A stretch of DNA of 64,000 nt from Candidatus Dojkabacteria bacterium HGW-Dojkabacteria-1 (GTDB lineage Bacteria; Patescibacteriota; Dojkabacteria; SC72), in contig PHAO01000001.1 of the NCBI GenBank assembly GCA_002840365.1, positions 441,337 through 505,336 on the forward strand, written 5' to 3'. Numbering within the stretch: position 1 is the stretch's first letter; the number at the start of each line of letters is the position of its first letter. A model generated the notes under the pieces. That model was not told where the DNA came from. It saw nothing but the letters and a program-made list of their open reading frames with translations, and ran no database searches. Both the position numbers and the translations under genes were made by a program. Of the stretch, positions 1 through 14,671 are shown one piece after another.

Positions 1-279
1 ATAAGGGAATCAATAATTCTTGCTACAATATATATATTTATTAAATTCGTTAAATTTCTGTATATGGTTGTTACAAATGTAGTAACAGTAATAAAGGGAG
101 ACATTCTCCAGTTAATCTTTAAAGACCAAATTGATATTTCAATATAGTCTTTAAATGAAAGGGGTTTTTTCTTTGACATATCAATTTCTAGGCAATTTAA
201 TAGGCTAATTTTAACAAACAAACACTTTTTGAGTCAATATTGTATACATTTGTTAATTCAGGTATAATGTAATATCAAA

Positions 280-990
280 TTACATACTTAGATACCTCTT
301 TTTTTCAGCTTCAGACATTTTCTCAATTGAATATCTTAGAGTAGTTCTGGGCATACTCTTAATATTTTCATTTAAAAATTCTCTTAGTACATTGATATCT
401 CTTTTTCCAAGCTCTCTTAACATCCATCCTACAGCTTTGTGAATTAAATCATGTTTGTGGTTAAGTAATATTCTTGAAATTTTTAAGGTGTCCTCATATT
501 CATTTCTTCTTAAGAAAGCATATGTAGAAACAATAGAGATTCTTTGTTTCCATAGGTCATTTGAATCAGCAAATTGATACAAAATTCCTTTCTCTGTATT
601 TGTAATATACAAATATTCTCCTAATATTTTGTAACAAGAAAGATCTACAATATCCCAATTGTTACATCCTTTTAAATTCTCTATATAGAAAATATATACC
701 TCTTTCTTACCTTCAATATCAGCTTTCTCAAATTTGTAAGTAAGAATAATGTATGAACATAGGCGTACTTCATGTACAGGATGTACCAACAGAGGTTCTA
801 ATTCATCAAAAGAGATCTTTTTGAAATATTTTTTCGCAACAAAACGAATATTTGGAACAGTAATTCCCCAAAATTCATCACCCTCCCCATATTCTCCTTT
901 ACCAGTTTTAAAAAATCTTGGGAAAAATACTGCCTTTTCTTTGTTTGAAAAAGACTTTAAATCACTAAGGATATCTTTAGAAAGGCTCAT
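280..990 (-). CDS. AlkD-like DNA alkylation repair protein (HEAT-like repeat DNA glycosylase family)
   Basis: 236-aa ORF; overall resemblance to the pfam 'DNA alkylation repair enzyme' family, with helical repeats and Trp/Arg-rich motifs; recognition by eye only. Confidence 0.5.
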   Translation of the reverse strand: MSLSKDILSDLKSFSNKEKAVFFPRFFKTGKGEYGEGDEFWGITVPNIRFVAKKYFKKISFDELEPLLVHPVHEVRLCSYIILTYKFEKADIEGKKEVYIFYIENLKGCNNWDIVDLSCYKILGEYLYITNTEKGILYQFADSNDLWKQRISIVSTYAFLRRNEYEDTLKISRILLNHKHDLIHKAVGWMLRELGKRDINVLREFLNENIKSMPRTTLRYSIEKMSEAEKKRYLSM

Positions 991-1031
991 ATGTAATAAT
1001 AGCAGGAAGAAATAATATTAAACATACCCAT

Positions 1032-2399
1032 ATGAAATTAATTTCCCAATTCTCCAATAAATACAACAATATTACATACAAGACCTATGAACTTGAGAAT
1101 GGTATTAAATTACTTCATTTGGATAATCCTGCTACTGTTGATTTTGATTTTGCTCTAATATTTAAAGCAGGTACATCCTTTGAAATGAAAGAGGGTGTTC
1201 CAAAAGGTACTGCACACTTTCTAGAGCATATGTTACTTAATCCGAATTCTACATTTAAGACAAAAGCTGATATCGACAGATTTGAACAAGGAAACAAAGA
1301 TAGACCCGCTATATATACAAATGCATACACCACAAGAAAGAATATATATCTTACATGTCATGCAAATGAACAGGGTGATATGAGAGTACTTGATAGGATG
1401 GAAAGCTTACTTCAATTTCCTAAACGTAAATTTTCAAATCAAATGGAGAAAGAAAGAGGCATTATACTTGCAGAAAAAAGTAGGAAACCAAAGAGAGAGA
1501 AAGATGGATATTTAATGAGTTTAGAGTTTCTTTTTAAAGATATACAAGATGAATTTGCATATGATGTATTAGGAGAAAGTGAAGATATTAAAAGGATAAC
1601 GATAGATGATTTAGAGAAGTTTTACAAAAATAGATATGTTTCGGGTAATACAGTAATTGCAATACAAAGTAATGGGGATTTAAGGAAATCTTTAACTAAC
1701 AGAATTGAAGAAATTGCAAAGAAGATTCCTCTTGGTGAAATGGATAATCATAGAGAAGTAGAATTAGAGAACAAATGGAGAGTAGGGACCTTTACAGAAG
1801 ACAGAGCAAATGGAGTGAGTATATCCTTTATATACTACGACAAAGTAGATAAAAGGATAGATTACAAAAAATATGCAATAGAATATATATATGGAAGATT
1901 GCTTGATTGGTTAACATTTGACATATTGAGAGAACAAATGAGTTTAATATATGATTTCTCAGTATTTAGAATTGGAAACATGTCATACGATTATAATATG
2001 AATGGTTTTAGATTTGTTACAGAGAAGGAAAAGGTAGAAAAGATGCTTCAAGAGCTGTACACACTTCTACATACTACTTCCTTTATCTTTCTTAAATCTA
2101 AAAGAGGAAAAGAGTGGTTTGATGATGTAATAAGTACATATGTATTTCCAAGAACAACAAAATTCAATGAAGAACTTGCCGAAAATGCTATTACAGCCCT
2201 ACTTGAAGATGGAGAAATATTTAACTCTAATACTGCAGTTAGAATTGCTAAAAAGATTACAATATCAGATATCAAAGAGTACTTAACTGAAAGATTAGAA
2301 ATGAAACCCCATATATGGGTAGAGAGTGATATGACTCAAACTCAGATGGATATTTTGATCAACAATTCTCCTTTTTCAAAAAAATTTAATAGGGTATAA
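1032..2399 (+). CDS. M16 family zinc peptidase (insulinase-like)
   Basis: 455 aa; inverted zinc-binding motif HxxEH present as 'HFLEHM' near the N-terminus; length and two-domain layout typical of M16. Confidence 0.7.
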   Translation: MKLISQFSNKYNNITYKTYELENGIKLLHLDNPATVDFDFALIFKAGTSFEMKEGVPKGTAHFLEHMLLNPNSTFKTKADIDRFEQGNKDRPAIYTNAYTTRKNIYLTCHANEQGDMRVLDRMESLLQFPKRKFSNQMEKERGIILAEKSRKPKREKDGYLMSLEFLFKDIQDEFAYDVLGESEDIKRITIDDLEKFYKNRYVSGNTVIAIQSNGDLRKSLTNRIEEIAKKIPLGEMDNHREVELENKWRVGTFTEDRANGVSISFIYYDKVDKRIDYKKYAIEYIYGRLLDWLTFDILREQMSLIYDFSVFRIGNMSYDYNMNGFRFVTEKEKVEKMLQELYTLLHTTSFIFLKSKRGKEWFDDVISTYVFPRTTKFNEELAENAITALLEDGEIFNSNTAVRIAKKITISDIKEYLTERLEMKPHIWVESDMTQTQMDILINNSPFSKKFNRV

Positions 2400-2400
2400 T

Positions 2401-2427
2401 CCATTTCTAATTTTTTTTTAGAAATGT
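2401..2427 (+). terminator. AT-rich palindromic hairpin just after the M16 peptidase stop (weak terminator or attenuator candidate)
   Basis: catttctaa-ttttttt-ttagaaatg: perfect 9-bp inverted repeat around a T7 loop, 1 nt after the stop at 2399. Confidence 0.25.
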
Positions 2428-2430
2428 ACT

Positions 2431-2817
2431 ATGCCTGAAATTAGAGAAACAGGACAATATCAAATAGCATACGAAAGACTTTTACAAGAGCTTCATAAGT
2501 ATAATATTTCTGAAACAGAGTTCGATGATTACATATATCTTCTTTTGGATGAGGTAAAGAACAAAGTTAATGACGCAGGTAAGATACCTGAATACTCATA
2601 TACATTGTATGTAAATCTTCCAATGATTTATGAGTATAGCGGAAGTAATTATATAGAACTTCTATGTGGTTTTAATCCAATACCAGAATATGTAGATGAT
2701 ATGACTATAGAAGGTTCAATAATGATTCCAAAAAATGCAAGTGCAAGAATGAATCTGACAAATGGTGAATATGATGTCGTTATTTCTTGGCATGAAATAT
2801 TTTTAGAAAACAATTGA
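2431..2817 (+). CDS. hypothetical protein
   Basis: 128-aa ORF in an operon-like position after the M16 peptidase gene; no recognisable motif. Confidence 0.4.
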   Translation: MPEIRETGQYQIAYERLLQELHKYNISETEFDDYIYLLLDEVKNKVNDAGKIPEYSYTLYVNLPMIYEYSGSNYIELLCGFNPIPEYVDDMTIEGSIMIPKNASARMNLTNGEYDVVISWHEIFLENN

Positions 2818-2842
2818 CCATTAAGATATGATACATGTAATA

Positions 2843-2865
2843 TTTAGATATACTAAATATCTAAA
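2843..2865 (+). promoter_or_regulatory. candidate palindromic operator upstream of the FNR-family oxidoreductase gene
   Basis: TTTAGATAT-actaa-ATATCTAAA: perfect 9-bp inverted repeat with a 5-nt spacer, 17 nt upstream of the ATG at 2882. Confidence 0.25.
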
Positions 2866-2881
2866 TTGATTATCAATTACA

Positions 2882-3583
2882 ATGGAACTAGTTTTTAAAG
2901 AAATGAAAAAAGAAGCACAAAACGCTTACTCCCTTATCTTCGAACCTAACTCTGAATTCAAATGGAATGCAGGAGAATATCTTGAGATAAAGATGCCACA
3001 TAGTAATGAAGATGATAGAGGAATAGAAAGATATTTCTCAATATCCGCAGCACCAAGTGAAGGAGTAGTCATGATTACTACTCGATTTTTTGAAAATGAA
3101 GCTAGTTCATTTAAAAAAGCCCTTTTTGAGCTAAAAACAGGTGATAAACTTGAAAATGTTAAAAAACCAGAAAACAATGATAGCTTTTTTAATGCAAATA
3201 ACCCAAATAGAGAATATATATTTTTAACAGCAGGTATTGGTATAACACCAGTAAGATCAGTAATAAAGGAATATCATCTTAATAAAAGAGATTTAAAAGG
3301 TATTCTCCTTTATGCAAATAGGGATGATGAATATATATTTGGTGAAGAATTAGAGAGAATGACAAACGATATGCCAGAATTTTCAATACAAAAATATCAT
3401 GGAAAAAGAATTAACAAAGAAGTCCTAGAAAAGCTATTAAAGGAATATGATAACCCAATATTTAATATCTCTGGTACATATGATTTTAATATGCAAATGA
3501 AAGATATTCTCCTTAATCAATTAAAGATAGATTCTTCAAATGTAAAGAGTAGTTCTTTTGGAAAAGGATATTCTCAATCCTAG
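2882..3583 (+). CDS. FNR-family FAD/NAD(P)-binding oxidoreductase
   Basis: RxYS-like FAD motif (ERYFSISAAP) and GxGxxP NAD(P) motif (AGIGITP); 233 aa. Confidence 0.55.
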   Translation: MELVFKEMKKEAQNAYSLIFEPNSEFKWNAGEYLEIKMPHSNEDDRGIERYFSISAAPSEGVVMITTRFFENEASSFKKALFELKTGDKLENVKKPENNDSFFNANNPNREYIFLTAGIGITPVRSVIKEYHLNKRDLKGILLYANRDDEYIFGEELERMTNDMPEFSIQKYHGKRINKEVLEKLLKEYDNPIFNISGTYDFNMQMKDILLNQLKIDSSNVKSSSFGKGYSQS

Positions 3584-4104
3584 TTTTTCATAAATTTCCT
3601 TATCTCTTTTTTAAGATATTCAATATCCTCATAACTATGATTATCATCCCTTTCATTGGGTCTTTTGTACTCTGTTGTTTTTACATTAAGACTCTTTGCC
3701 TTAAGTATTGTATCTAACTCTTTGTATCCAATTACCGGATCTTTAGGTTTTTGTATGAACAAAGCCTTTGTTTTTAAATTTTCCAATAGATAATCTACCT
3801 CATCACCCCTATTTAATGCCCAGTAGTAGGGGAAGCCAATAAATATATATGCGCCTACATCAAGGTATCCTAGCTTTTGTGCCTTCATACCTAATATACA
3901 ACCTGCACTCTTTCCTATTACATATGTTTTCCCTTGTATTTTTAAACCCATTATCTTATCTAATTCAGTATTCCAATCAATATTACCATCACCTATCCAA
4001 TGATTATAAAAGAGCATTAGTTTATCCTTTTCATCAAAGCTATCACGCAAAGATTCACACCATTGCTTATTATCTTTGTTGTTACCTGGGAGAAATAGAT
4101 ACAT
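3580..4104 (-). CDS. small alpha/beta serine hydrolase (YdeN/RBBP9-like esterase)
   Basis: 174 aa; GxSxG nucleophile elbow 'GKSAG'; Asp and His candidates in the C-terminal part (DDNHSYED). Confidence 0.5.
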   Translation of the reverse strand: MYLFLPGNNKDNKQWCESLRDSFDEKDKLMLFYNHWIGDGNIDWNTELDKIMGLKIQGKTYVIGKSAGCILGMKAQKLGYLDVGAYIFIGFPYYWALNRGDEVDYLLENLKTKALFIQKPKDPVIGYKELDTILKAKSLNVKTTEYKRPNERDDNHSYEDIEYLKKEIRKFMKN

Positions 4105-4195
4105 ATGCGTATATATTACAATTTATATATACATCTATATTGTAGTCTGTTTGTATTACTAATTCAAACTTAGTTTGGTATAATTCTCTAGTCAT

Positions 4196-4273
4196 GGTGG
4201 CTATAGCTCAATTGGTTAGAGCATCGGTTTGTGGAACCGAGGGTTGTGGGTTCAAGTCCCATTAGCCACCCCA
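4196..4273 (+). tRNA. tRNA-His(GUG): tRNA-His (anticodon GUG) with encoded G-1 and 3' CCA
   Basis: Cloverleaf folded by hand. Acceptor GTGGCTA pairs with TAGCCAC; D arm GCTC/GAGC; anticodon stem TCGGT/ACCGA with loop TTGTGGA; T arm GTGGG-TTCAAGT-CCCAT. An extra 5' G pairs with discriminator C. CCA is present in the genome. Confidence 0.85.
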
Positions 4274-5718
4274 TTTCCCAGTTTTTTGAAATCTACCAGC
4301 AAATCAAAGGGGTTTATGTAATCATATAGCAGATTCTTTCCATCCCATCTGATATTCGAAAGTACAGTGTTAATTAATATTGCTCTTTCTTCATCCAAAG
4401 CATTCTCAAATAGTTCTCCACTGTGCTTTGCAAGTTCTAATACATATTTAGCAGTGATATAGAAAGTATCCTCTGTTTGTTCTGATGAACGGATTTTATC
4501 AGTAACTTCTTTATACAACCTGTCATACTCTTTCGCTTTTTCTTCATAGAAACTACTAGTAATACTACCATCAACATATAGATCATAATTCTTTGATTTC
4601 ATTCTAGAATACCTTTCCTGTTCCCTGCGTAGATTTCTTACTCTGGAAATAGATACTTCTAAATTAGTTTCATTGATTGATTTCAAATCATTTAATATCT
4701 TCTCTGCATCATTTTCTGTTAATCTAATCCTATCAAATGCTTCTGCAAACTGCTTACTCAATTCTTCTTCACTTACATACTGGGCTCCATGTTTACCCTT
4801 ATATTCAGTACAACAATAGGAGTTCTTCCCATTATGCTCCTCTGGGCACATAGAATAACCGCAAATAGCACATCTTATTAATCTTCTATACTTAAATGGT
4901 TTCCCAGCATACTTACCTTTGTTTTTGTTTTGTAATCTACCTTCTCTAATTTCTTGTACTCTGTTAAATAAATCCTCTGATATTATTGTTTCATAACAAT
5001 GAGGGTATTCAATATTCTTCTTCTGATACAAGATGATACCTATATAAAACTTGTTTGTAAGTATTCTAGCAATTTGAGAACCAGCAAATTCAACATTAAA
5101 TAATTCTAGGATTTTCTTTCTCAATGTCCTATCAGAATAACTATTGGTTGAATATAACTCATACATCTTCTTTACAATCAGAGATTCCTCATAGTTAACT
5201 TCAACTGTTTTCTCCTTGTCATTAATTGTAATGTTGTTATATCCATAGGGTGCTTTCGTTAGTAATTCTCCATTCCTCATCTTTTGTTCAAATCTCCTTT
5301 TGACATTATCCCTTATTGAATCAGAATAATACTGTGCTAGTGCAACCCCCATTGAGAATTTAAATAGGTCCACAGCGGGGCTAGATGCCCGTAGAACGAG
5401 GTTATCTGATGGGAAGTGTAATTGTACCTTTTCTCTCTTTCGAAGGTCATCAAACAACGGTAAATAGCGATTGAAATCTCTTAATAACCTATCTATCTTA
5501 TCAGTAATAAGTGCAACTGTTTTATTCGTTTCTTCTATCGTTTTTAATACTTCTTCAAATTGCTTTCTATTCCCTTTATATGCACTTTCTGAAATATCAA
5601 ATATATCCTTATCACTGTATTCTAGATTATTACTCTTTGCATATTCTATTAATCTTGGTATCTGCTGTTCTGTTGATTGCTCATCTGTTGATACTCTCGC
5701 TAATAGAATTGCTCTCAT
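4252..5718 (-). CDS. large serine recombinase (resolvase/invertase catalytic domain + recombinase domain + zinc ribbon)
   Basis: N-terminal 'AILLARVSTDEQ' catalytic Ser motif; 488 aa; Cys-rich C-terminal zinc ribbon (CAICGYSMC...CCTEYKGKHG); 3' end overlaps the antisense of the tRNA-His 3' end by about 22 nt. Confidence 0.85.
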   Translation of the reverse strand: MRAILLARVSTDEQSTEQQIPRLIEYAKSNNLEYSDKDIFDISESAYKGNRKQFEEVLKTIEETNKTVALITDKIDRLLRDFNRYLPLFDDLRKREKVQLHFPSDNLVLRASSPAVDLFKFSMGVALAQYYSDSIRDNVKRRFEQKMRNGELLTKAPYGYNNITINDKEKTVEVNYEESLIVKKMYELYSTNSYSDRTLRKKILELFNVEFAGSQIARILTNKFYIGIILYQKKNIEYPHCYETIISEDLFNRVQEIREGRLQNKNKGKYAGKPFKYRRLIRCAICGYSMCPEEHNGKNSYCCTEYKGKHGAQYVSEEELSKQFAEAFDRIRLTENDAEKILNDLKSINETNLEVSISRVRNLRREQERYSRMKSKNYDLYVDGSITSSFYEEKAKEYDRLYKEVTDKIRSSEQTEDTFYITAKYVLELAKHSGELFENALDEERAILINTVLSNIRWDGKNLLYDYINPFDLLVDFKKLGNGVANGT

Positions 5719-8700
5719 ACTTTAAAAGATTCTACAATTTGGATTTCTTCTTCGCTTAAATCATATATTTTATAAAGGATTGTATCGATTTCAGATTCAA
5801 TATTTTTTATTTCGAGTACCATTTCTTTTAACTTTTTCTGCTTATCTTTAATCCAATTGTGTAATTTCTCCTTTTCTTCAATTGAAAGTCGTGTTTTCTT
5901 TTTATCAAGTATCTCTACAATTTGATTCCAACCATATTCGAGTATGTTTTTTAAATCTAAATGATATTCATTACCCAAAAATACACTGGTTTCTTCATTT
6001 AACATATAAAAATCTTTATACTTACTTTCAAGATCAAAAACATATTGCTCTATAACTAATATATCCTCTTTGTTAGTATCCTTGATTGGGAATAGGAGTA
6101 ATGGTCCCTTATCAACTTGTAATAATTCCCCAAGTAATTTACCTCTATTTCTGAACCAAAAATTACTAATAGTTGAATTAAGTAGTGCAGTTAAATACTT
6201 TAAATTAATCCTATCAGTAACAATAAAGTTGAGTGCTCTTGAACCATAATATTCAGAGATTGTATAGAAGAATGTAGGATATTTTACTCTAACACCACAC
6301 ACAATTTTATCTCCTGCTTTAAAGAACTGCTCATTTCTCTCCCTATGTAAATAATAGTAGGGTTTGTTAGGAGTTTTATACTTAATTTTCGCATCAATTA
6401 ATACATCTTTGTACTTATTAAAATGAGTATATAAATTGGGGAAATCCTCTAATTTTTTATCATCAAAATTTTTTGAGGACAGGTAAATAATAAAACTATT
6501 TGTACTTCCAACAGAATATCTTGAAACATTAGTATAAAAAGGTTTAATAAATTCTCTTTCAGAAATGTTAAATTTTGTTAAATCATCCACAATAAAACAC
6601 TCATCTGGTGCTCCCACAATTCCCTGTGCTACTTCATTATCATTCAGTGTAAATGTTCTACTCTTTGAAATCTTATCTATAACTTTTTCAAATTTCTCAT
6701 CTGAAAACACTATATTCCCATTACCTATTTTCTCCCTATCTATTGTTGCGTCAATACTTTTTATACTGTCAGAATAGTTTATACTCCTATCATTTAATAC
6801 AAGTTGAATCAAATCCAAACCAATCTGTTTATCTAATATCTTTGTATATTCAACTTTGTATCTATTCTTTACATTCTTTTCTTTTTTAAAAACAAATATC
6901 ATAGTTTGAATACCTGCATCTTTAAAAACTTGAAATCCTCCAAAATCAAAATAGGAGATGATTTCACCCTCATTAAGTATCTTTTCCCTAAAAATTGATG
7001 CACCAGCATTTGTAATCCAATTATTAGGAGCAATAAAACTTAAATATCCATTTTCCTTTAACAAATCAATAGATAAACAAGCAAAATAGGTCCAAATATC
7101 CATTTTCCCTTGATAATAAGGTCCATCATGTAATCCAGTAAATGCTGTTTTATTAGTATATTCTTTAATGTAAGGAGGATTCGCGACTATTACATCAAAA
7201 CCACCATTGTCAATGATATCTTTATACTCAACCCCCCAATTAAATGCTTTATCCCCAGCGATAGCGGGATCATCTATTAGTGAATTACCACACTTAATAT
7301 TTTTATCTAAATTCTGTAAAGGTTCAGTATTCTTCGCTGTTTTTAACCATAATGCAAGTTTTGTAATTTCCACACTTTCTTTGTTAAGATCTACCCCAAA
7401 GAGGTTATTAAGTAGGATTCCATTATTTACACTCGCAGGATCATAATCATCAATTTCAAGATTGAGTTTCCCGGACTCTCTTATATTCTGCAATTTCTCT
7501 TCAAATCTCCTAGCATATTCTTGTTTAAGATAAGTATGTGCTTGATTTAAAATTGCACCACTACCACAAGCAGGATCCAATATCTTAATTTCATTCAATT
7601 TATCGGGATTTTCTTCTAAAAACCTTCCTACTGTATTTTCTACTATGTATTTTGTAATATATTCTGGCGTGTAGAATATTCCATCTTTTTTCCTTCTTCC
7701 CTTTTTTTCAGTAACTGTTAAATCTTCAATCATCTCCAATCTATTATCACTATCCTTTACTTGCATTACATTCTCTTTAATCCTTTCTAAATCAGAAATA
7801 CTTTGCTCAAATATGTGTCCTAGGATATTAACATTAATATCTGTTTGATAATCATATTCCGCAAGTTCTAATATCCTTTTCCAAAAACTATCTAGAATGA
7901 TAAGGTTATCCAATATCTCATCTTTCTTAAACAATCCCCCATTATAAGCATTAATTGGTGGAGTAACTCTTGAATTTCCCTCATCAATAGATTTAAACAA
8001 ACCCTTAAACTCATTCCAAACTCTCTCATCACTACTAGCAAAAGAACTCAATGCTCTCTCATAGGTATTCTTCACTATTTCGTAGGGTAATAATTCTGTT
8101 GTATCTTCACAGAATAGTGTAAATACAATTCTATCTAGTAATTTCTGTGTTTTCTCTAATAATACCTCTGCTGATATACCTTTGTTATTTTCTAATAGAT
8201 GGTTAAGCAATCCCAATCTAACCTCTTTATACTTTGCATAATAATCATTTGTTATATCCTGCTCTTGTTGATTACTTTCCAAAGATAGTACATCTACAAC
8301 ACTGTTATCCTCTTTCTTAATTAGGTTATCTTTTGATAGTAAGAAATAGAATCTTTTAAATTCCTGCTCATCTAGTAAATCTAATACCATAAATCTTTCA
8401 AAATATTCTTGTGATCTAGATTTACTATATAAACGAATCTCTTTGAAATTTGATACTATAATCCATTTACATTTATCTTCTTTACTTGCATAGTTAAATG
8501 CTTGGTCAACAGGTGTTTGCTTTGTATCTCTGTGTTGCTTTTTATCTAAATCTGTTTTTGCATCCTTTAACTCAATTACAACACGAGTATCCTTATTATC
8601 TTTTGTAAAGAACCCTAAACTTCCATCTGGTTCACCAACATTGTTTTCTATTCTTGGATGTTGTATTAAGGTATATTCTTGCTCTGCGGAAGTTACATCA

Positions 8701-8900
8701 TCATAGTTAAGGATATTTTCAAAAAAGGTTTGTAGGAATTTACCTTGAATGCTTTTTTCTTTTGTATTTTCTAAATCACTATCCTTTAATGCTCTCTGCC
8801 ATTTATCTATTAATGTGTTAATCTCCTCTAATTTCTTTCCTGTTGGAAACTCAAAATTTGTGTATTTCTGCTGTAATAATTTCTTGTTAATTAGATTCAT
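5715..8900 (-). CDS. Type IIG/IIL restriction-modification enzyme (MmeI-like single-chain endonuclease plus N6-adenine methyltransferase)
   Basis: 1061 aa. N-terminal PD-(D/E)xK-type motif (EPDGSLGFF...VVIELKDAK). MTase motif I 'ILDPACGSGAILN' and motif IV 'VIVANPPYIKE' (gamma-class NPPY). Long C-terminal TRD-like region. 4-nt overlap with the recombinase gene. Confidence 0.7.
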   Translation of the reverse strand: MNLINKKLLQQKYTNFEFPTGKKLEEINTLIDKWQRALKDSDLENTKEKSIQGKFLQTFFENILNYDDVTSAEQEYTLIQHPRIENNVGEPDGSLGFFTKDNKDTRVVIELKDAKTDLDKKQHRDTKQTPVDQAFNYASKEDKCKWIIVSNFKEIRLYSKSRSQEYFERFMVLDLLDEQEFKRFYFLLSKDNLIKKEDNSVVDVLSLESNQQEQDITNDYYAKYKEVRLGLLNHLLENNKGISAEVLLEKTQKLLDRIVFTLFCEDTTELLPYEIVKNTYERALSSFASSDERVWNEFKGLFKSIDEGNSRVTPPINAYNGGLFKKDEILDNLIILDSFWKRILELAEYDYQTDINVNILGHIFEQSISDLERIKENVMQVKDSDNRLEMIEDLTVTEKKGRRKKDGIFYTPEYITKYIVENTVGRFLEENPDKLNEIKILDPACGSGAILNQAHTYLKQEYARRFEEKLQNIRESGKLNLEIDDYDPASVNNGILLNNLFGVDLNKESVEITKLALWLKTAKNTEPLQNLDKNIKCGNSLIDDPAIAGDKAFNWGVEYKDIIDNGGFDVIVANPPYIKEYTNKTAFTGLHDGPYYQGKMDIWTYFACLSIDLLKENGYLSFIAPNNWITNAGASIFREKILNEGEIISYFDFGGFQVFKDAGIQTMIFVFKKEKNVKNRYKVEYTKILDKQIGLDLIQLVLNDRSINYSDSIKSIDATIDREKIGNGNIVFSDEKFEKVIDKISKSRTFTLNDNEVAQGIVGAPDECFIVDDLTKFNISEREFIKPFYTNVSRYSVGSTNSFIIYLSSKNFDDKKLEDFPNLYTHFNKYKDVLIDAKIKYKTPNKPYYYLHRERNEQFFKAGDKIVCGVRVKYPTFFYTISEYYGSRALNFIVTDRINLKYLTALLNSTISNFWFRNRGKLLGELLQVDKGPLLLFPIKDTNKEDILVIEQYVFDLESKYKDFYMLNEETSVFLGNEYHLDLKNILEYGWNQIVEILDKKKTRLSIEEKEKLHNWIKDKQKKLKEMVLEIKNIESEIDTILYKIYDLSEEEIQIVESFKV

Positions 8901-8912
8901 AGTATATAGTAA

Positions 8913-10064
8913 TTATAAATTGTTTCCACCAACATTAATAGTATCAGTATAACTCTTCAAATCCAATGGTTTGTAGGTTTTTAAATAATTGCTTATAAAT
9001 TCAAAACATTCAAGGTTATCTTCAACAATATTTATACTATTCATTTTATACTTTATCCCATACCAACTTCTGCTGGAATATACACTTTCAATTATCTTCC
9101 GAAATTCTCTTACTCCGAATGTTTTACAGTATTCAATGAAACCATAGATAGATAAGAGGTTGTTTAACTTAATATCTGGATTATTACTAACTAACTCTCT
9201 GAAAAACAACTCTTTATTATCTATTGAGCAGTTTAATAGATTGTAGTTACTAACAATATCATTCCAAACACTTCTCAATACTGATAATGATATATCACTA
9301 TCACATACCTGCACTAAATTGAAATCCCTTTTGAAAACACTACGAATCTTCTGAATACTGTTATATCTTACTTCAATTCTTAATATCTCAAATTTCTTTT
9401 GGCTGTTTATACTATCAAAGATATTAAATTGTATAGCATTTCCTTTCTCAATAGATCTAGAATCGCTTATCCTTCCCTTTTGTAAATCTTTCTTCTTATC
9501 ATACAGAATTACCTCAAATGAATTAGTATGGAATCTAATACTATCTCCCTTATTTCTATAATCCTTTTCTGTTAAATCATACCTTAAACTTAAATCTGTT
9601 TTAGAAACTTCCTTTGTTATGAAATAAGGTATTACATATTCAGGTAAGGGTATATTCTTTGAAAAATGGACTTTACATACTAATGCTTTTTTCAGTACAT
9701 CCGATGATACCTCTACACTCATCTTTCTTAATGAATCTGATAACTTTTCAACTACATTCTCTATATCTTCATTCCTTAACTCATCAAAATTGTTTAAGAA
9801 CACTATCTTTGGGGCGGAGAATTGAATATACAGATAGATTAATGGTAGAGCATTTACCATTTTTTTTCTTAATGTAAGTTGCGGTTTATATATTCTATTC
9901 TTGTAATCTGCTTGTGTAGGGTTGTTATATGCTTCGATATACCCCCTTGCTCCAAAACGAGAGTAGGGCGGATAGTAGAAATTGTAGGTATTCGGAGTAA
10001 AAGCATTGTGATCTAATATCTTAAAATCCTTTTCGTTTAATCTTAATGTAATTGTATCGATCAT
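8913..10064 (-). CDS. Rep_trans-family (pT181 RepC/D-like) rolling-circle replication initiator
   Basis: 383 aa; motifs 'VILYDKKKD' and 'ILRIEVRY' resemble the 'RIYNKKQE' and 'RVEIELKR' signatures of the pT181 Rep family; N-terminal 'MIDTITLRL' similar to Rep_trans N-termini. Confidence 0.5.
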   Translation of the reverse strand: MIDTITLRLNEKDFKILDHNAFTPNTYNFYYPPYSRFGARGYIEAYNNPTQADYKNRIYKPQLTLRKKMVNALPLIYLYIQFSAPKIVFLNNFDELRNEDIENVVEKLSDSLRKMSVEVSSDVLKKALVCKVHFSKNIPLPEYVIPYFITKEVSKTDLSLRYDLTEKDYRNKGDSIRFHTNSFEVILYDKKKDLQKGRISDSRSIEKGNAIQFNIFDSINSQKKFEILRIEVRYNSIQKIRSVFKRDFNLVQVCDSDISLSVLRSVWNDIVSNYNLLNCSIDNKELFFRELVSNNPDIKLNNLLSIYGFIEYCKTFGVREFRKIIESVYSSRSWYGIKYKMNSINIVEDNLECFEFISNYLKTYKPLDLKSYTDTINVGGNNL

Positions 10065-10068
10065 ATTT

Positions 10069-10341
10069 TTATTTTTCTAATTTACTCACTCTACAACCAC
10101 TGTTTGTACCCTTTTTAACTATTTGTACTCTTTCATTGATTTGCATTAATGTGTATATGTACAATGAAAGAGGATTAGTAAGTTCCTCTTGGATAATTGG
10201 AGTAGGATATTCTTTTATTAGTACATTCCGAACCACTTTTCTCATTACAAAGCACAAAAGATACCAATTTAGGTATCTCTTTGATTTTCCCTGGGAGTGA
10301 AGATATAAAATATCATTCTGCCGCCAGTATCGGAACCTCAA
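10069..10341 (-). CDS. small hypothetical protein inside the island
   Basis: 90-aa ORF co-directional with island genes, 4 nt upstream of rep; no motif recognised; may not be real. Confidence 0.25.
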   Translation of the reverse strand: MRFRYWRQNDILYLHSQGKSKRYLNWYLLCFVMRKVVRNVLIKEYPTPIIQEELTNPLSLYIYTLMQINERVQIVKKGTNSGCRVSKLEK

Positions 10342-10544
10342 AGAGGTTGGGCAGTTTTAATATTTATATAACTAATTATAACACAATTTTTTGGACAACA
10401 AAAACTAGCAACTACATTAACAATTGCTCATGGTTAGGAAATAGGTTTTTGAAGTTATTTAGGAACAGGGTAGAATTTATAGATTTAATTGATTCAATAA
10501 ATTTCTGTTCAAAATACGCCCACTGCTTCACCCCATCTTACCTA

Positions 10545-11909
10545 CTAACTACTCGTAGTCCAAGTAACACCACCATACCTATCATTAATATTAGCTTTCT
10601 TGTTTGAATATATTTCATTCAATATTTTTGGTACTGCAGCTAAATCCTTTGGTATTTGAAATAGATGCTCAACAACCTTCCCTCCCTTTGAATCTCGTAC
10701 CCTTTGATCAATAACTAAATAAGCATTAGTAAAAAAATCATACGGAATATACTCACCACCAGGCAATATATCATCAACAGCTCTAGCATGCATTCTCCAA
10801 TTAGACATTTGTTTAATTGCAGCTACCCAATCACTAGGAGTTCTATTTAAATGCCTCGTGGTATTAAGAGACCTTACAACTGTATTGAAATCTATATTCT
10901 TTCTTTCTGCATCTGTTCTTAAAACCTTAGTATACATATAGTCCTCAACACCTACATTAGGTGTGTAATGAGTAATTGCTCTCATACCTGAGACATAGTT
11001 AGCAACCTTACTCATCAAAGCACCACCAGGAAGTGTAATAAACTTTTTCTTATTCTCTATTTGATATCCTAATTGAGTAGGCCCAACAGGAGTAGTAAGT
11101 AGTGGTTTACCACTTTCTTTTTCCATTATCGCAAACAAATCTTTTGTCCCAACAGCAGTTAATTTTCCTCTTACCAAATTGTCATACATAGTTCTAAAAG
11201 GAGTCTTAACTAAAAGACCCCTTTCATCATTAAAACTAAGAATTGTTTCAGCATCCATTTGATATACAAAATCAGGAGCATATCCCTTTACTATTTGTGC
11301 ATAAAGGAAATTAGAAACATCTCTTAATGCTCTAACCTTACCTTTATTCAAATCACTAGAATCTTTTTGTTGCCTAATTAAAAAAGCTCTGCTTTCTCCC
11401 TCTCTTTCATCAATCTCTGCTATCTCAACAGGAATATCCCAAGCAGTAGCAGCATCAATATCTTCAGTATTAGGTTTGCGAGTAATTATTCTTCTAATAC
11501 TTTCCTCTTTTAAATGCTTCTTAAGTAGAGAATCTATACGGTTATACATCTCTTCTCCAATTCTTGGTGATGCTCCTCCTCCATTGTTACATACTAATAG
11601 AAAATCCAGATCGATATTCGAATCTTTTGCTTGTACAAGTAAGTCTTGAAAAGATTTCTCAAACATTGAAGATGTTAAGTATGATTCATCCTCTTCCCAA
11701 AGGGAAATAACTACGCAACCACGAGGTCTTTTTCTTTCAACTTTGTTCTCATTTAAAGACTGTTCCAATTCTGTTACACCTTCTGAATACATTTCTAAAA
11801 TATTCTCTCTTAACACCTCGTTAGGATTTACTTCTGTAGCCTCTATACTGTTGTTAGGTTCCATATACATATACATATATAGGTTAATAATAGATGATAA
11901 CATATTCAA
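10545..11909 (-). CDS. island cargo protein of unknown family
   Basis: 454-aa ORF, first gene of the minus-strand island block; no Walker, NTase, nuclease or capsid signature recognised; three in-frame ATGs within (ATGTAT)3 at the 5' end. Confidence 0.5.
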   Translation of the reverse strand: MNMLSSIINLYMYMYMEPNNSIEATEVNPNEVLRENILEMYSEGVTELEQSLNENKVERKRPRGCVVISLWEEDESYLTSSMFEKSFQDLLVQAKDSNIDLDFLLVCNNGGGASPRIGEEMYNRIDSLLKKHLKEESIRRIITRKPNTEDIDAATAWDIPVEIAEIDEREGESRAFLIRQQKDSSDLNKGKVRALRDVSNFLYAQIVKGYAPDFVYQMDAETILSFNDERGLLVKTPFRTMYDNLVRGKLTAVGTKDLFAIMEKESGKPLLTTPVGPTQLGYQIENKKKFITLPGGALMSKVANYVSGMRAITHYTPNVGVEDYMYTKVLRTDAERKNIDFNTVVRSLNTTRHLNRTPSDWVAAIKQMSNWRMHARAVDDILPGGEYIPYDFFTNAYLVIDQRVRDSKGGKVVEHLFQIPKDLAAVPKILNEIYSNKKANINDRYGGVTWTTSS

Positions 11910-11983
11910 TATGTCTCGACATTTTGCTTTATAGAATAGTATAATTACCCTTATTCAATTCCTTTCAAAAGGAGGTGATTAAA

Positions 11984-12103
11984 GTGCTCAGTAAGCTTTG
12001 GACTAAACTTGTCCATGCTGTGCAGTGGTATTGTTGCTGCAAATGCGACGATTGTCGCAAAGATGACCACTGCGGAGGTCCCAGATGCCATCGCTACGAT
12101 TAG
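11984..12103 (+). CDS. cysteine-rich 39-aa peptide (VLSKLWTKLVHAVQWYCCCKCDDCRKDDHCGGPRCHRYD), GTG start
   Basis: Perfect SD 'AAGGAGGTGA' 5 nt upstream of GTG; 8 Cys and 3 His; region visibly GC-richer than its flanks; followed by a 12-bp hairpin; not in the ORF track because under 60 aa. Confidence 0.4.
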   Translation: MLSKLWTKLVHAVQWYCCCKCDDCRKDDHCGGPRCHRYD

Positions 12104-12120
12104 GATAGGCATCACAAGAG

Positions 12121-12168
12121 GGTAGTCCCAATCACAGATTTATATCTTTCGTATTGGGACTACCTTTT
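12121..12168 (+). terminator. 12-bp perfect stem-loop followed by TTTT (terminator-like)
   Basis: GGTAGTCCCAAT-(20 nt loop)-ATTGGGACTACC then TTTT; 17 nt after the Cys-peptide stop. Confidence 0.35.
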
Positions 12169-12236
12169 CATTCAATTCATTCCTTTCACAAACCTTTACA
12201 TGCTATACTTTATCTATTAAGTTCATTTATATTTGA

Positions 12237-12467
12237 ATGAATAAAAAAATAGCAGTTATCGAAGATGATGGAATATTACTTAAGGCATTAAACATAGAGC
12301 TACTAAGTAAAGGATTTGAAGTAATTTCTGCAACAGATGGAGAGACAGGATTAGGATTGTATATAGCAAAAGCAGTAGTAGAAGCTCATGGTGGTAAAAT
12401 ATGGTTTGAATCTAAAAGTAGAAAAGGAACTACCTTTTACTTTTCTCTTCCAAAAGGTAATAATTAA
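12237..12467 (+). pseudogene. chimeric remnant of a two-component system (receiver N-terminus fused to histidine-kinase HATPase C-terminus)
   Basis: 76-aa ORF: '[36 protein letters not shown]' is receiver-like; '[35 protein letters not shown]' matches the HK G2 box and C-terminal segment; an in-frame deletion scar. Confidence 0.5.
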
Positions 12468-12496
12468 ATATTAACTTAATATCTTTATTCATCTCC

Positions 12497-12925
12497 ATGG
12501 ATAAAAACACAAAATCCACTGCAAGCAGAATTACTGAAGCAGTTTTTGGAATACTCTTTAATCTTCTTTTCTACTATCTCTTAAACAGATTCTATACACT
12601 AGTTCCATTTTTAAATGAAGATTTTGAAAGAATATTACCAATATACAATCTCGCAATAATGGTATCCATCTTTATACATGCTTCTAGAATTCTCTTTGAA
12701 AGTAAAATATACAAAGATATTGGTGAAATCGTTAATACAGGATTTTTTGTATATATTGCATACTTACTTTGGACTATATTTCCATTTAATCTTGAATGGT
12801 TTAACAATACAGCTCTATGGAATATATTGATAAGATTTCTAATTGTAGTTCCTGCATTTATTGCTTTTATTAGTGCTTTTGTATCCCTATTTAAAACCTT
12901 AATAGATATAGGTAGGAAAGTATAA
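12497..12925 (+). CDS. small integral membrane protein (4 TM) of unknown function
   Basis: 142 aa, hydrophobic segments throughout. Confidence 0.5.
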   Translation: MDKNTKSTASRITEAVFGILFNLLFYYLLNRFYTLVPFLNEDFERILPIYNLAIMVSIFIHASRILFESKIYKDIGEIVNTGFFVYIAYLLWTIFPFNLEWFNNTALWNILIRFLIVVPAFIAFISAFVSLFKTLIDIGRKV

Positions 12926-13066
12926 TCCTCTTACCAACCCTATAGTATCATGATATAATATCTCCTGTTCAGTCTTGAGACTTTGCGAGTTGGTCGCTAA
13001 CAAGGTTTCTGTTTTAGACTAAACAAATTGCACTTTAATAATCAACGAACAAATAGGAGATAATCG

Positions 13067-13711
13067 ATGAAAAAGCTTCTTGCTTTAATAGTCCTACTGG
13101 TACTGTGCACTGGCATTGTTCTGGTAACAGAGAAAGTTACAGCGCAAGGTCAGGACACTTGCCCGCAAGGTAATGGCTGGGTTAAGGTTGATGACTTGAG
13201 TGGATATTCTTACACTTTTGATGCTCCCGAAGGGACATTGATTGTGGAGAGCTGCTACAAGGCATCTACCACTGTTGTGTTTGAAACTTACAATCCCCCC
13301 CAGGAATCAGTGACTATTACAAGCACTGTAATAAATCCTGGAGGTCAGATTGCTGAGTTATCACATGCAAGTTTCAAGCTTGTAGTAAAACCAACGGCAA
13401 CACCTCCGATTGAGGAAACGCCTACAGCAACTCCTCCGGTCGAGGAAACGCCTACAGCAACACCTCCGGTCGAGGAAACACCAACGGCAACGCCTCCAGT
13501 TGAGGAAACGCCTACAGCAACACCTCCGGTCGAGGAAACACCAACGGCAACACCTCCAGTTGAGGAAACGCCAAGAGCAACAGAGACACCAGGAGAAATT
13601 ATCACTACGGTTCAAACCGGTGGTGGTGGTATCGCTCCTCTCTTAATCCTGCTAGGCTTTGGAGGTGCATTCCTTCTTTGGGCATTTTTTCGCTCTCGCA
13701 TCGCGAGGTAA
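13067..13711 (+). CDS. secreted cell-surface protein with a conserved N-terminal domain, Thr/Pro/Glu-rich decapeptide repeats and a C-terminal TM anchor
   Basis: Signal peptide. An N-terminal domain of about 80 aa is paralogous to the protein at 37676-38785. TATPPVEETP repeated about 6 times. C-terminal 'GGGG-hydrophobic-RSRIAR' sorting-signal-like tail. GC-richer than the genome by eye. Confidence 0.7.
   Translation: MKKLLALIVLLVLCTGIVLVTEKVTAQGQDTCPQGNGWVKVDDLSGYSYTFDAPEGTLIVESCYKASTTVVFETYNPPQESVTITSTVINPGGQIAELSHASFKLVVKPTATPPIEETPTATPPVEETPTATPPVEETPTATPPVEETPTATPPVEETPTATPPVEETPRATETPGEIITTVQTGGGGIAPLLILLGFGGAFLLWAFFRSRIAR
13391..13590 (+). repeat. 30-nt tandem repeat (about 6.5 copies) encoding the TATPP(V/I)EETP linker
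   Basis: Near-identical 30-mers 'cc(a/t)ac(g/a)gcaac(a/g/t)cctcc(g/a)(a/g)t(t/c)gaggaaac(g/a)' seen directly. Confidence 0.85.
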
Positions 13712-14420
13712 AAAAATAGCCCTTGTGGGAGTTATCCTAGTGCTGATAACTGCTTTTGTTTCAGCACAAACAGTCAAAGAAAATGTGCCAGAAGTGGCGC
13801 AAAGTACTGAGACTGTCGTAGTAACATCTCCTACCCATACCCTTTCGCCTTCGGCAACTCATATCCCTACACAAGTAGTAGTGGAACAAATTGAGGAGCC
13901 AACCCCAATTCCAACCTTACAGCCAACGGAAGAACCGGAGAACATCAGTCTCCAAGGTATCTATACCGTGACTGTCCAGTCGGATGCAATAACCGATTGG
14001 TATAGGAGCTTCTTTAAGGAGCTTAAGGTGGAACTGTGCCAAGAGCCCTGCACTGCAGAGCAAATAATGGCGCAGTTGGGAAAACAAAGCGACAAAGAGT
14101 GGGTAGCAGTCCAACACGGAAGAGTCTTGTACGTCCATTCCGGTTGGAGTATAACTTCTGGTCCCGAGTTTGGAGAAATACTTCTCAGAGTTCATAACTC
14201 TGGAGACCTGAAGTCTGCTGTTATCTGCCTAGAGGAAAGGCGCTGCTTCCAAGTAGTGGACCTTGTACTCCTAGGTAGGGGATCTATAGGTGATAACATA
14301 TCCACTGGAGAGTTGTTCAGCGTAGAACATGGAGACTACTTCATCGTAACTTGCAGTGAACGCTTAATTCCGGGTTTGGAAACACCCAAACTGATCCTCC
14401 AGATTAGAAAAATCGAATAA
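13659..14420 (+). CDS. secreted protein, Thr/Pro-rich N-terminal region plus a Cys-containing C-terminal domain, unknown function
   Basis: ORF-track start at 13659 overlaps the upstream gene by 53 nt; the true start may be GTG 13725, giving a signal peptide MGVILVLITAFVSAQ; GC-richer region. Confidence 0.5.
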   Translation: MEVHSFFGHFFALASRGKKIALVGVILVLITAFVSAQTVKENVPEVAQSTETVVVTSPTHTLSPSATHIPTQVVVEQIEEPTPIPTLQPTEEPENISLQGIYTVTVQSDAITDWYRSFFKELKVELCQEPCTAEQIMAQLGKQSDKEWVAVQHGRVLYVHSGWSITSGPEFGEILLRVHNSGDLKSAVICLEERRCFQVVDLVLLGRGSIGDNISTGELFSVEHGDYFIVTCSERLIPGLETPKLILQIRKIE

Positions 14421-14427
14421 GTGCAAA

Positions 14428-14477
14428 AAGGAAGGGTCTTCGCGACCAAAGCAATAAAGATCCTTCCTTCGATTTTC
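14428..14477. terminator. imperfect 13-bp hairpin between convergent genes (candidate bidirectional terminator)
   Basis: AAGGAAGGGTCTT-(15 nt)-AAAGATCCTTCCTT followed by a T-rich tract. Confidence 0.35.
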
Positions 14478-14671
14478 TAAGACCTCTTTTGAAAAAATTT
14501 CAAATATACAATAGGTAATATACCTACAGTATTAAAAATCAATATACATATATACCATGCTAATTGGTTATTTTTTGCTGCTTTCCACAAGGCAATAGCC
14601 TTCCAAATACCTTCCCACAAAGAAAGTAAAAGAAGAATAGGTAACCATGCCATTAATATTTCTGTATCCAT
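14477..14671 (-). CDS. small 2-TM membrane protein, PLD-nuclease N-terminal (PLDc_N)-like family
   Basis: 64 aa; pattern W..A...WKA.K......W......N..G...Y resembles PLDc_N small membrane proteins. Confidence 0.4.
   Translation of the reverse strand: MDTEILMAWLPILLLLSLWEGIWKAIALWKAAKNNQLAWYICILIFNTVGILPIVYLKFFQKRS

Follow-up and report, generated by a model that had tools for sequence, protein, structure and literature searches.

A recently mobile element at a tRNA-His gene of a Dojkabacteria genome, with a serine recombinase reading frame that spans the attachment site

We analysed a 64,000-nucleotide stretch of the Candidatus Dojkabacteria bacterium HGW-Dojkabacteria-1 genome (assembly GCA_002840365.1, contig PHAO01000001.1, positions 441,337 to 505,336; hereafter the window, whose own positions are used throughout) and, in it, a small integrative element inserted at the 3′ end of a tRNA-His gene. 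The G+C content of the window is ~30%. Five co-directional open reading frames (ORFs) lie on the minus strand at 4252..5718, 5715..8900, 8913..10064, 10069..10341 and 10545..11909, beside a tRNA-His(gtg) gene on the plus strand at 4197..4273, which has an encoded CCA end (ARAGORN; Rfam tRNA, 70.9 bits). The original prediction, made from the sequence by eye of a model, had read all five ORFs as one island reaching to 11983, with a large serine recombinase (LSR), a stand-alone MmeI-like Type IIG restriction-modification (RM) enzyme, a Rep_trans-like initiator (the 383-aa product of 8913..10064, Rep for short) and a 454-aa cargo protein. The five ORFs were confirmed, as was site-specific integration at the tRNA-His 3′ end; hidden Markov models supported the recombinase, and Pfam and PADLOC the Type IIG enzyme. 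The initiator label agreed with the fold comparison but failed every sequence test. The right boundary was ~1.4 kb off, the element ending at 10536. Three of the element's four genes had been named correctly, but the block was over-extended by one host gene, the supposed 454-aa cargo, which is present at the empty site.

The boundaries were set by alleles that lack the element. On Logan contigs L009 and L011, which come from other samples, the gene for the 454-aa protein (in its 441-aa form), tRNA-His and the 174-aa gene beyond it (window 3580..4104) are contiguous with no insertion; Logan contig L010 carries the occupied allele and is identical to the window. BLAST of L009 against the window returned 1..4274 at 98.55% identity and 10529..13471 at 99.97% identity. 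Because these two flank matches share 8 bp, the insertion is exactly 6,262 bp (4275..10536). It lies between two copies of the 8-bp core CACCCCAT, one at attL (4267..4274, the last 7 nt of tRNA-His plus a T) and one at attR (10529..10536); the tRNA part of the core takes in the discriminator base and the CCA end. The tRNA-His gene is intact in the occupied and empty alleles, with the same sequence in L009. The core could be located only via the empty-site allele, and a 26-nt search allowing up to 3 mismatches found no longer second copy of the tRNA end in the window. The crossover falls within the core. The only dyad symmetry in attP and attB was a weak distal TTCAAAA/TTTTGAA, which does not single out the crossover dinucleotide. 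The comparison of empty and occupied alleles thus showed a precise insertion between short attachment (att) sites with a minimal common core, and the 99.97% identity of the right flank indicates that the event was recent and precise to the base. The original prediction had named site polymorphism at tRNA-His in advance as the test by which it could be refuted; the empty sites of L009 and L011 favour mobility. We conclude that the element is real and recently mobile.

Two further observations concern the junctions and flanks. Divergence between the occupied and empty alleles (L009, L011) was asymmetric: the tRNA side showed 63 alignment differences (59 mismatches plus gaps), concentrated at 556..3835, and the opposite flank 1 mismatch in 2.9 kb. 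A related element occupies positions 1..6159 of Logan contig L001 (SRR8925765), which starts with TGGGGTG and ends with ATGGGGTG, breaking exactly at the att core at both ends. Such a double break is expected if alternative junctions (empty site, circle, other flanks) coexist in the sample.

The gene next to the tRNA (4252..5718, minus strand) encodes, in its integrated form, a protein of 488 aa with Pfam matches to Resolvase (PF00239, 7.3e-21, residues 3-151) and Recombinase (PF07508, 1.1e-11). Zn_ribbon_recom (PF13408) scored just below its cutoff (24.3 bits against 25.3) and is recorded for most homologues, and the match to the phrog_95 integrase was at 9e-65. Residue S10, within the motif ARVSTDEQ, is invariant in the homologue alignment (A4), and the AlphaFold2 (AF2) model of homologue P0279 has long helices at 336-383 and 389-432, as expected of an inserted coiled coil. 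By these domain features the 488-aa protein is a large serine recombinase, with catalysis predicted.

The 3′ end of this gene is not the element's own. Its last four residues (ANGT) and the stop codon are specified by host DNA past the att core, and its last seven codons, core included, are antisense to tRNA-His, of which the ORF covers the last 22 nt. This antisense overlap had been described correctly in the original prediction, which took it for a reconstituted tRNA end; there is no 22-nt reconstitution, only 8 bp being duplicated, and the overlap arises because the recombinase ORF reads across the attL junction into host DNA. At the other end of the element, a detached 3′ segment of 38 codons plus stop (10412..10528, minus strand) is in frame with the sequence from 4275 onward only in the excised circle. 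Joining the element ends through the core extends the LSR ORF in frame from 488 to 522 aa. Between the window and L001, 14 of the 19 nucleotide differences in this extension fall at codon position 3. Joining the predicted ends of L003, an element that is also at tRNA-His and whose Rep is 49% identical, gave a homologous tail, and three independent elements at tRNA-Arg (L042, L051 and L052) gave tails homologous to one another. Tails of this type, in which a motif resembling L-x-D-x-(F/L)-R-T recurs, are also present in database LSRs of ~504-530 aa, and no tRNA follows these long-form genes on their contigs. The third-position excess, the homologous tails and the long-form database proteins together show that the extension to 522 aa is coding. 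Since the attP core lies inside the LSR ORF, integration replaces a conserved C-terminal tail of ~20-45 residues. This change of isoform may help to set directionality or stabilise the integrated state.

The LSR gene is preceded by that of a 1061-aa protein (5715..8900, minus strand), the cargo of the element. Its Pfam matches follow the order expected of an MmeI-like Type IIG enzyme (MmeI_N, MmeI_hel, N6_Mtase/Eco57I/MmeI_Mtase, TaqI_C), it matched the PADLOC model REase_MTase_IIG at 4e-100, and its motifs are intact (nuclease D92...E110-x-K112, S-adenosylmethionine-binding DPACGSG442, and NPPY574). As judged from these matches, it has the Type IIG architecture, a single polypeptide with nuclease, spacer, gamma-class N6-adenine methyltransferase and target-recognition domain. 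The window element and L001 are 81-84% identical except for ~1.3 kb in the C-terminal part of this gene (window ~5915..7220, L001 3396..4700), which suggests that the target-recognition domain, and hence specificity, may have been exchanged between otherwise similar elements.

Upstream lies the gene for the 383-aa protein (8913..10064, minus strand), a putative rolling-circle initiator or nickase of Rep_trans fold, like that of the TATA-binding protein (TBP). A database protein of HGW-Dojkabacteria-1, a Patescibacteria genome, is 100% identical to it. The protein itself had no match in Pfam (E<=0.01), PHROGs, NCBIfam, PADLOC or the PDB sequences, and none of its hundreds of full-length homologues carries a Pfam domain. 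A profile of 34 family members found no Rep_trans chain among the PDB sequences and a single chance match, to Spt5; hhalign of the family against pT181 RepC (reconstructed sequence) was not significant. The AF2 model, built from 34 homologues, reached a predicted local distance difference test score (pLDDT) of 84.7 and a predicted template modelling score (pTM) of 0.82, with a catalytic beta-sheet domain at residues 1-240 and a helical domain at 250-372. A Foldseek search with this model found no match in the PDB; against viral models it retrieved proteins of Inoviridae sp., with E from 1.5e-8, one of them annotated as a replication protein (G2P). Fold comparison assigned the catalytic domain to the TBP-like horseshoe beta-sheet. 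In the family, H133, Y188-D-K190 and R229-x-E231 are invariant and D3 is conserved at >=90%. Matched by eye to RepC/RepDE, D3 corresponds to D46, H133 to D142, Y188-D-K190..D193 to Y191-N-K193..E196 and R229-x-E231 to R212-x-E214; all are placed on predicted beta strands, and their order along the chain matches that in RepC/RepDE (PMC4797284). For the Rep_trans-like label, then, the modelled fold holds, the sequence profile fails, and the active site is plausible.

The first gene of the operon is best read as a 58-aa ORF (10069..10245, minus strand), which is called as an ORF in L010 and aligns with the family clusters c7, c14, c19 and c30; the longer 90-aa reading with a TTG start (10069..10341, minus strand) was set aside. 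The protein belongs to a conserved family of small proteins encoded upstream of Rep, with the C-terminal motif L..FF.LL..ID.R. Between this gene and the detached LSR tail lies a conserved non-coding region (10256..10383, minus strand). It contains an extended -10-like sequence, TGTTATAAT (10383..10375), and two inverted repeats on the same strand, CTGCC[AACCTC-TTT-GAGGTT]...GGCAG at 10354..10318 and AGATACC-TAAATT-GGTATCT at 10282..10256. Mean column identity to L001 was 91% here (alignment A2), compared to 81-84% in the coding stretches of the element, and as single-stranded DNA the region folds better than shuffled controls (z = -3.16). A scan of the whole block with Rfam returned the tRNA alone, with no match to the control region. 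The four genes of the element form one operon with a putative promoter beside attR, and the region is a candidate for both the operon promoter and a double-strand origin or nick site.

With one genome scanned per species, the 383-aa protein has relatives in at least 327 species genomes, most of them uncultivated. The hosts include Patescibacteria, Omnitrophota, Thermodesulfobacteriota, Alpha- and Gammaproteobacteria, Rickettsiales, Dependentiae, Dehalococcoidia and others. Among 1.84 billion representative proteins, a profile search (E<=1e-3) recovered 1,381 clusters at 50% identity. No relative was present in 2.9 million IMG/VR contigs, in the 72,556 plasmids of PLSDB or in the 50,697 GenBank phage records of INPHARED. 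We kept 80 loci for family analysis, all from metagenome-assembled genomes (MAGs). Clustering of the neighbouring ORFs gave a common gene order: a ~350-aa protein of no assigned function, a ~55-aa protein, a ~97-aa SpoVG-like protein, Rep, a ~63-aa HTH_17 protein of excisionase type, a variable cargo, and the LSR of ~490 aa. Of this set the window element, a reduced member, has only the small gene, Rep, an RM enzyme as cargo and the LSR; L001 has the same reduced architecture at 81-84% identity, under purifying selection that includes the detached ORF tail.

Among 81 cargo ORFs, Pfam domains were N6_Mtase (17), Eco57I (13), MmeI_Mtase (10), N6_N4_Mtase (6), Type I S (6), C5 methyltransferase (4) and ResIII (4), with further EcoRII, Type ISP and HNH matches and three Erm-like rRNA methylases. 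From these counts of methyltransferase and restriction endonuclease domains, the cargo slot holds mostly restriction-modification. At a few loci an Erm-like rRNA adenine dimethylase (RrnaAD, 1e-47) was the only cargo (L069 3417..4301, L078 11324..12208, L049 11357..12241, and also L066), possibly a macrolide-resistance gene moving on this type of element in uncultivated bacteria.

The LSRs of the family are directed to tRNA genes. An LSR lies downstream of Rep at 56 loci; at ~38 of these its ORF terminates within a convergent tRNA gene (His, Asn, Gln, Arg, Pro, Asp or Glu). At least 86 of the 120 best LSR homologues end in an antisense translation of a tRNA 3′ end, and in many of those with tRNA-derived ends a Trp codon is read from the antisense CCA. 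A survey from 2020 noted that no serine integrase had until then been reported to use t(m)RNA genes and that such use needed proof (PMC7192596).

Some loci depart from the common plan. In L095 (817..4644), the partner of a long-form LSR from the same clade is not a Rep_trans-fold protein but a DnaG-type zinc-ribbon primase together with an AAA_25 helicase, which indicates that the integrase module is combined with different replication modules. In L002 (3173..4036, 287 aa) and L003 (6554..7012, 152 aa), an ORF with only the DNA-binding Recombinase domain of serine integrases lies directly upstream of Rep and after a SpoVG-like gene; the two products represent either what is left of a second integrase or accessory proteins that bind DNA. 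L025, on a contig binned to an Asgard archaeon (Promethearchaeota MAG contig JAHLWS010000050.1, 10001..13002), has Rep and LSR beside tRNA-Gln and reflects either binning contamination or presence across domains.

We consider it probable that 4275..10536 is an integrative element in which LSR-mediated integration, a split integrase, a rolling-circle Rep and a Type IIG cargo are joined in one operon. Integration and its precision are visible in the comparison of the occupied and empty alleles; in chemical terms, the LSR would recombine attP of the circle with the tRNA-His 3′ end, yielding the 8-bp repeat and an intact tRNA. Beyond this step, we infer replication, origin and isoform switch from the sequence. 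The circle would encode the 522-aa enzyme with its conserved, predicted helical tail, and the integrated form the 488-aa enzyme ending in antisense tRNA residues. After excision, the 383-aa protein may nick a hairpin origin within the conserved stretch that adjoins attP and thereby drive rolling-circle replication or the production of single-stranded DNA for transfer. The Type IIG enzyme would methylate the host and cut unmodified DNA, which could provide both an anti-phage benefit and an addiction module. With LSR, att sites and site polymorphism, the element has an integration/excision module of its own, as do integrative and mobilizable elements (IMEs).

Several results weigh against this interpretation. 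The element's attP was not seen in metagenome contigs of the Joint Genome Institute (JGI), where a 27-mer gave no match and a 20-mer three unrelated ones, and short related contigs showed no terminal overlaps of the kind produced by circular closure. The element lacks the HTH_17 excisionase-type (c4), SpoVG-like (c2) and ~350-aa (c3) genes that most relatives have, and it may therefore be impaired in excision. The LSR tail is predicted to be helical at low confidence (pLDDT ~50). Rep_trans membership of the 383-aa protein fails at the sequence level (Pfam, PHROGs, NCBIfam, PDB sequences, hhalign); its active-site correspondence to RepC/RepDE was made by eye, not from a superposition, and the metal-ligand position D142 holds a His (H133) and not an Asp. 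No transfer machinery is encoded among the element's genes, which leaves cell-to-cell movement unexplained.

The last point would fit an IME in the strict sense, in which the Rep_trans-fold protein would be not a vegetative initiator but a MobT-like relaxase nicking oriT, with export by a co-resident conjugative system. The Rep_trans superfamily includes the MobT relaxases (Tn916/ICEBs1/ICESt3 type), which in many streptococcal IMEs occur alongside site-specific recombinases (PMC5704250), and MobT-type proteins can serve as both relaxase and replication initiator; Pfam and PHROGs found no transfer genes of its own among the element's proteins. Still, we find this reading unlikely. There is no coupling protein among the element's genes, and no relative of the 383-aa protein is present among the 72,556 plasmids. 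Conjugative type IV secretion systems are not known from the host phylum, Patescibacteria or the Candidate Phyla Radiation (CPR). MobT proteins have an N-terminal helix-turn-helix, unlike the 383-aa protein. In the latter a catalytic domain is followed by a C-terminal helical domain, as in pT181-type Reps (PMC4797284).

The missing c2, c3 and c4 genes and the attP form not detected in the JGI contigs could also belong to a decaying, immobile remnant, the polymorphism then being explained by one old gain or a loss through chance recombination, and Rep and the recombinase being no longer functional; the C-terminal truncation of the integrated-state recombinase also suits such a remnant. Against this stand four intact ORFs with their catalytic motifs, the reduced architecture kept by L001 at 81-84% identity under purifying selection down to the detached ORF tail, and right flanks 99.97% identical between occupied and empty alleles, the mark of a recent, base-precise event. 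The L001 contig also breaks at both cores. We regard decay as improbable. Hardly any weight falls on a phage origin, whether as an inovirus-type prophage or as a satellite packaged by a helper phage. Among viral models, the 383-aa protein is structurally closest to proteins of Inoviridae sp., one annotated as a replication protein (G2P), and inoviruses have been reported in CPR and can use serine recombinases (PMC6813254), but none of the four genes was found by Pfam or PHROGs to encode a morphogenesis ATPase, coat, terminase or capsid protein, Rep relatives are absent from the IMG/VR contigs and GenBank phage records, and the relatives carry restriction-modification cargo, not virion genes. 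The original prediction had likewise argued against an inovirus-type prophage, from the lack of Zot-like and coat genes, and on this it was right.

It had also found the architecture impossible to place among described element types. This was true in part: the particular family appears to be undescribed in the literature searched, but close analogues exist, the closest known kinds being the serine-recombinase/Rep_trans IMEs and the tycheposons. The Firmicutes serine-recombinase IMEs with Rep_trans/MobT proteins (Guedon et al. 2017, PMC5704250) are likewise small and integrated, with very short flanking repeats, a nickase of the Rep_trans superfamily, RM among the cargo and no transfer apparatus of their own. 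They differ in that known serine-recombinase IMEs insert inside protein-coding genes (PMC5704250), whereas the present family uses tRNA 3′ ends; here, too, the nickase is unrecognisable by PF02486, the integrase ORF spans attP, the hosts are CPR and other uncultivated phyla, and neither a coupling protein nor a helper is evident. The tycheposons of Prochlorococcus (Hackl et al., 10.1101/2020.12.28.424599) are compact, tRNA-targeting elements of streamlined genomes with the integrase at one end, a small replication module, a cargo slot and no capsid or conjugation genes. In contrast to the present element, they have a lineage-specific tyrosine recombinase (910/937) that faces inward and primase/helicase/polymerase modules; here a serine recombinase reads outward across the junction and is paired with a Rep_trans-fold initiator. 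With its serine recombinase and Rep_trans-fold replication gene the element is not a tycheposon, and only the overall logic is common to the two.

The 383-aa protein has no detectable sequence similarity to RepC/RepD/RepDE of the pT181 family or to Geobacillus RepSTK1 (PF02486; PDB 4CWC, 4CIJ; PMC4797284). It differs from these Reps in having His for a metal-binding Asp and no Arg at Tyr-2, and in being encoded in an integrated element and not on a plasmid. A large family tied to Rep_trans by structure only has a precedent in the Rep-Arvir archaeal initiators (PMC13107129, 2026), which also come from an integrating element whose excision re-creates a reading frame or operon. These are archaeal, have DUF7845 and winged helix-turn-helix domains, and are partnered by a tyrosine integrase. 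Archaeal integrases of the SSV1 type are tyrosine recombinases whose gene is partitioned into two large fragments by integration into a tRNA gene. They share with the present LSR an attP inside the integrase ORF, a tRNA target and products that differ with the state of integration; the present enzyme, a serine recombinase, exchanges no more than its last ~20-45 residues.

Gene exchange in CPR bacteria is little known and their genomes are tiny, and the locus offers a delimited, recently mobile element with an empty-site control. Genes for tRNAs are rarely reported as targets of serine integrases, and this clade uses them systematically. As integration splits the integrase gene, the two states make different proteins, suggesting a testable principle of control. 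A broader proposal, which we put forward tentatively and think more likely wrong than right, is that a large and so far undescribed clade of serine integrases specific for tRNA 3′ ends, many of them with the antisense CCA read as Trp at the crossover, carries a built-in switch of direction or stability in the exchange of its C-terminal helix for a few residues encoded by the tRNA, and forms, with the new Rep_trans-like family, minimal pan-bacterial shuttles of RM systems between CPR and other uncultivated lineages. If true, it would add a new form of direction control for serine integrases, without or besides a recombination directionality factor. The 383-aa family (~1,400 clusters at 50% identity, no Pfam model) would extend the Rep_trans superfamily, and a profile of it would allow such elements to be annotated. 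Genome engineering could benefit as well from compact serine integrases whose tRNA att sites are defined.

The ORF beyond attR (10545..11909, minus strand, TTG start) is chromosomal and outside the element. It more likely starts at an internal ATG, giving a protein of 441 aa. The 441-aa gene adjoins tRNA-His at the empty site and is therefore chromosomal; its presence there rules out the element-cargo reading. The 454-aa protein had no match in Pfam, PHROGs, NCBIfam, PADLOC or the PDB sequences and has just five database relatives, of which one (441 aa, on four Logan contigs) is 100% identical. For two of the four distant relatives (P0124 and P0123) contigs were examined, and both lie in ordinary chromosomal contexts with no element near, between genes for TrpRS and FtsH or between those for NUDIX and NADAR proteins.

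Farther along, a 40-aa Cys-rich ORF (VLSKLWTKLVHAVQWYCCCKCDDCRKDDHCGGPRCHRYD) lies on the plus strand at 11983..12105 with a strong ribosome-binding site (AAAGGAGGTGAT). The region's best promoter-like site is just upstream (TCGACA-18-TATAAT, 11916..11945), a terminator-like hairpin follows (12121..12175), and the G+C content is above that of the surroundings; the product may be a small secreted or metal-binding peptide. It is followed on the same strand by a 76-aa ORF (12237..12467) in which the N-terminus of a response-regulator receiver appears to be fused in frame to the C-terminus of a HATPase_c domain from a histidine kinase (Pfam 3.7e-13). This apparent fusion is present in all strain variants and was probably left by a deletion inside a two-component operon. 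The interval 13000..14500 has 45-48% G+C in a genome of ~30% G+C and encodes a 214-aa protein (13067..13711) that has a signal peptide, six repeats of TPTATPPVEE and a membrane anchor at its C-terminus, overlapped by a 253-aa ORF; the interval may be of foreign origin or may encode a surface protein whose composition is biased.

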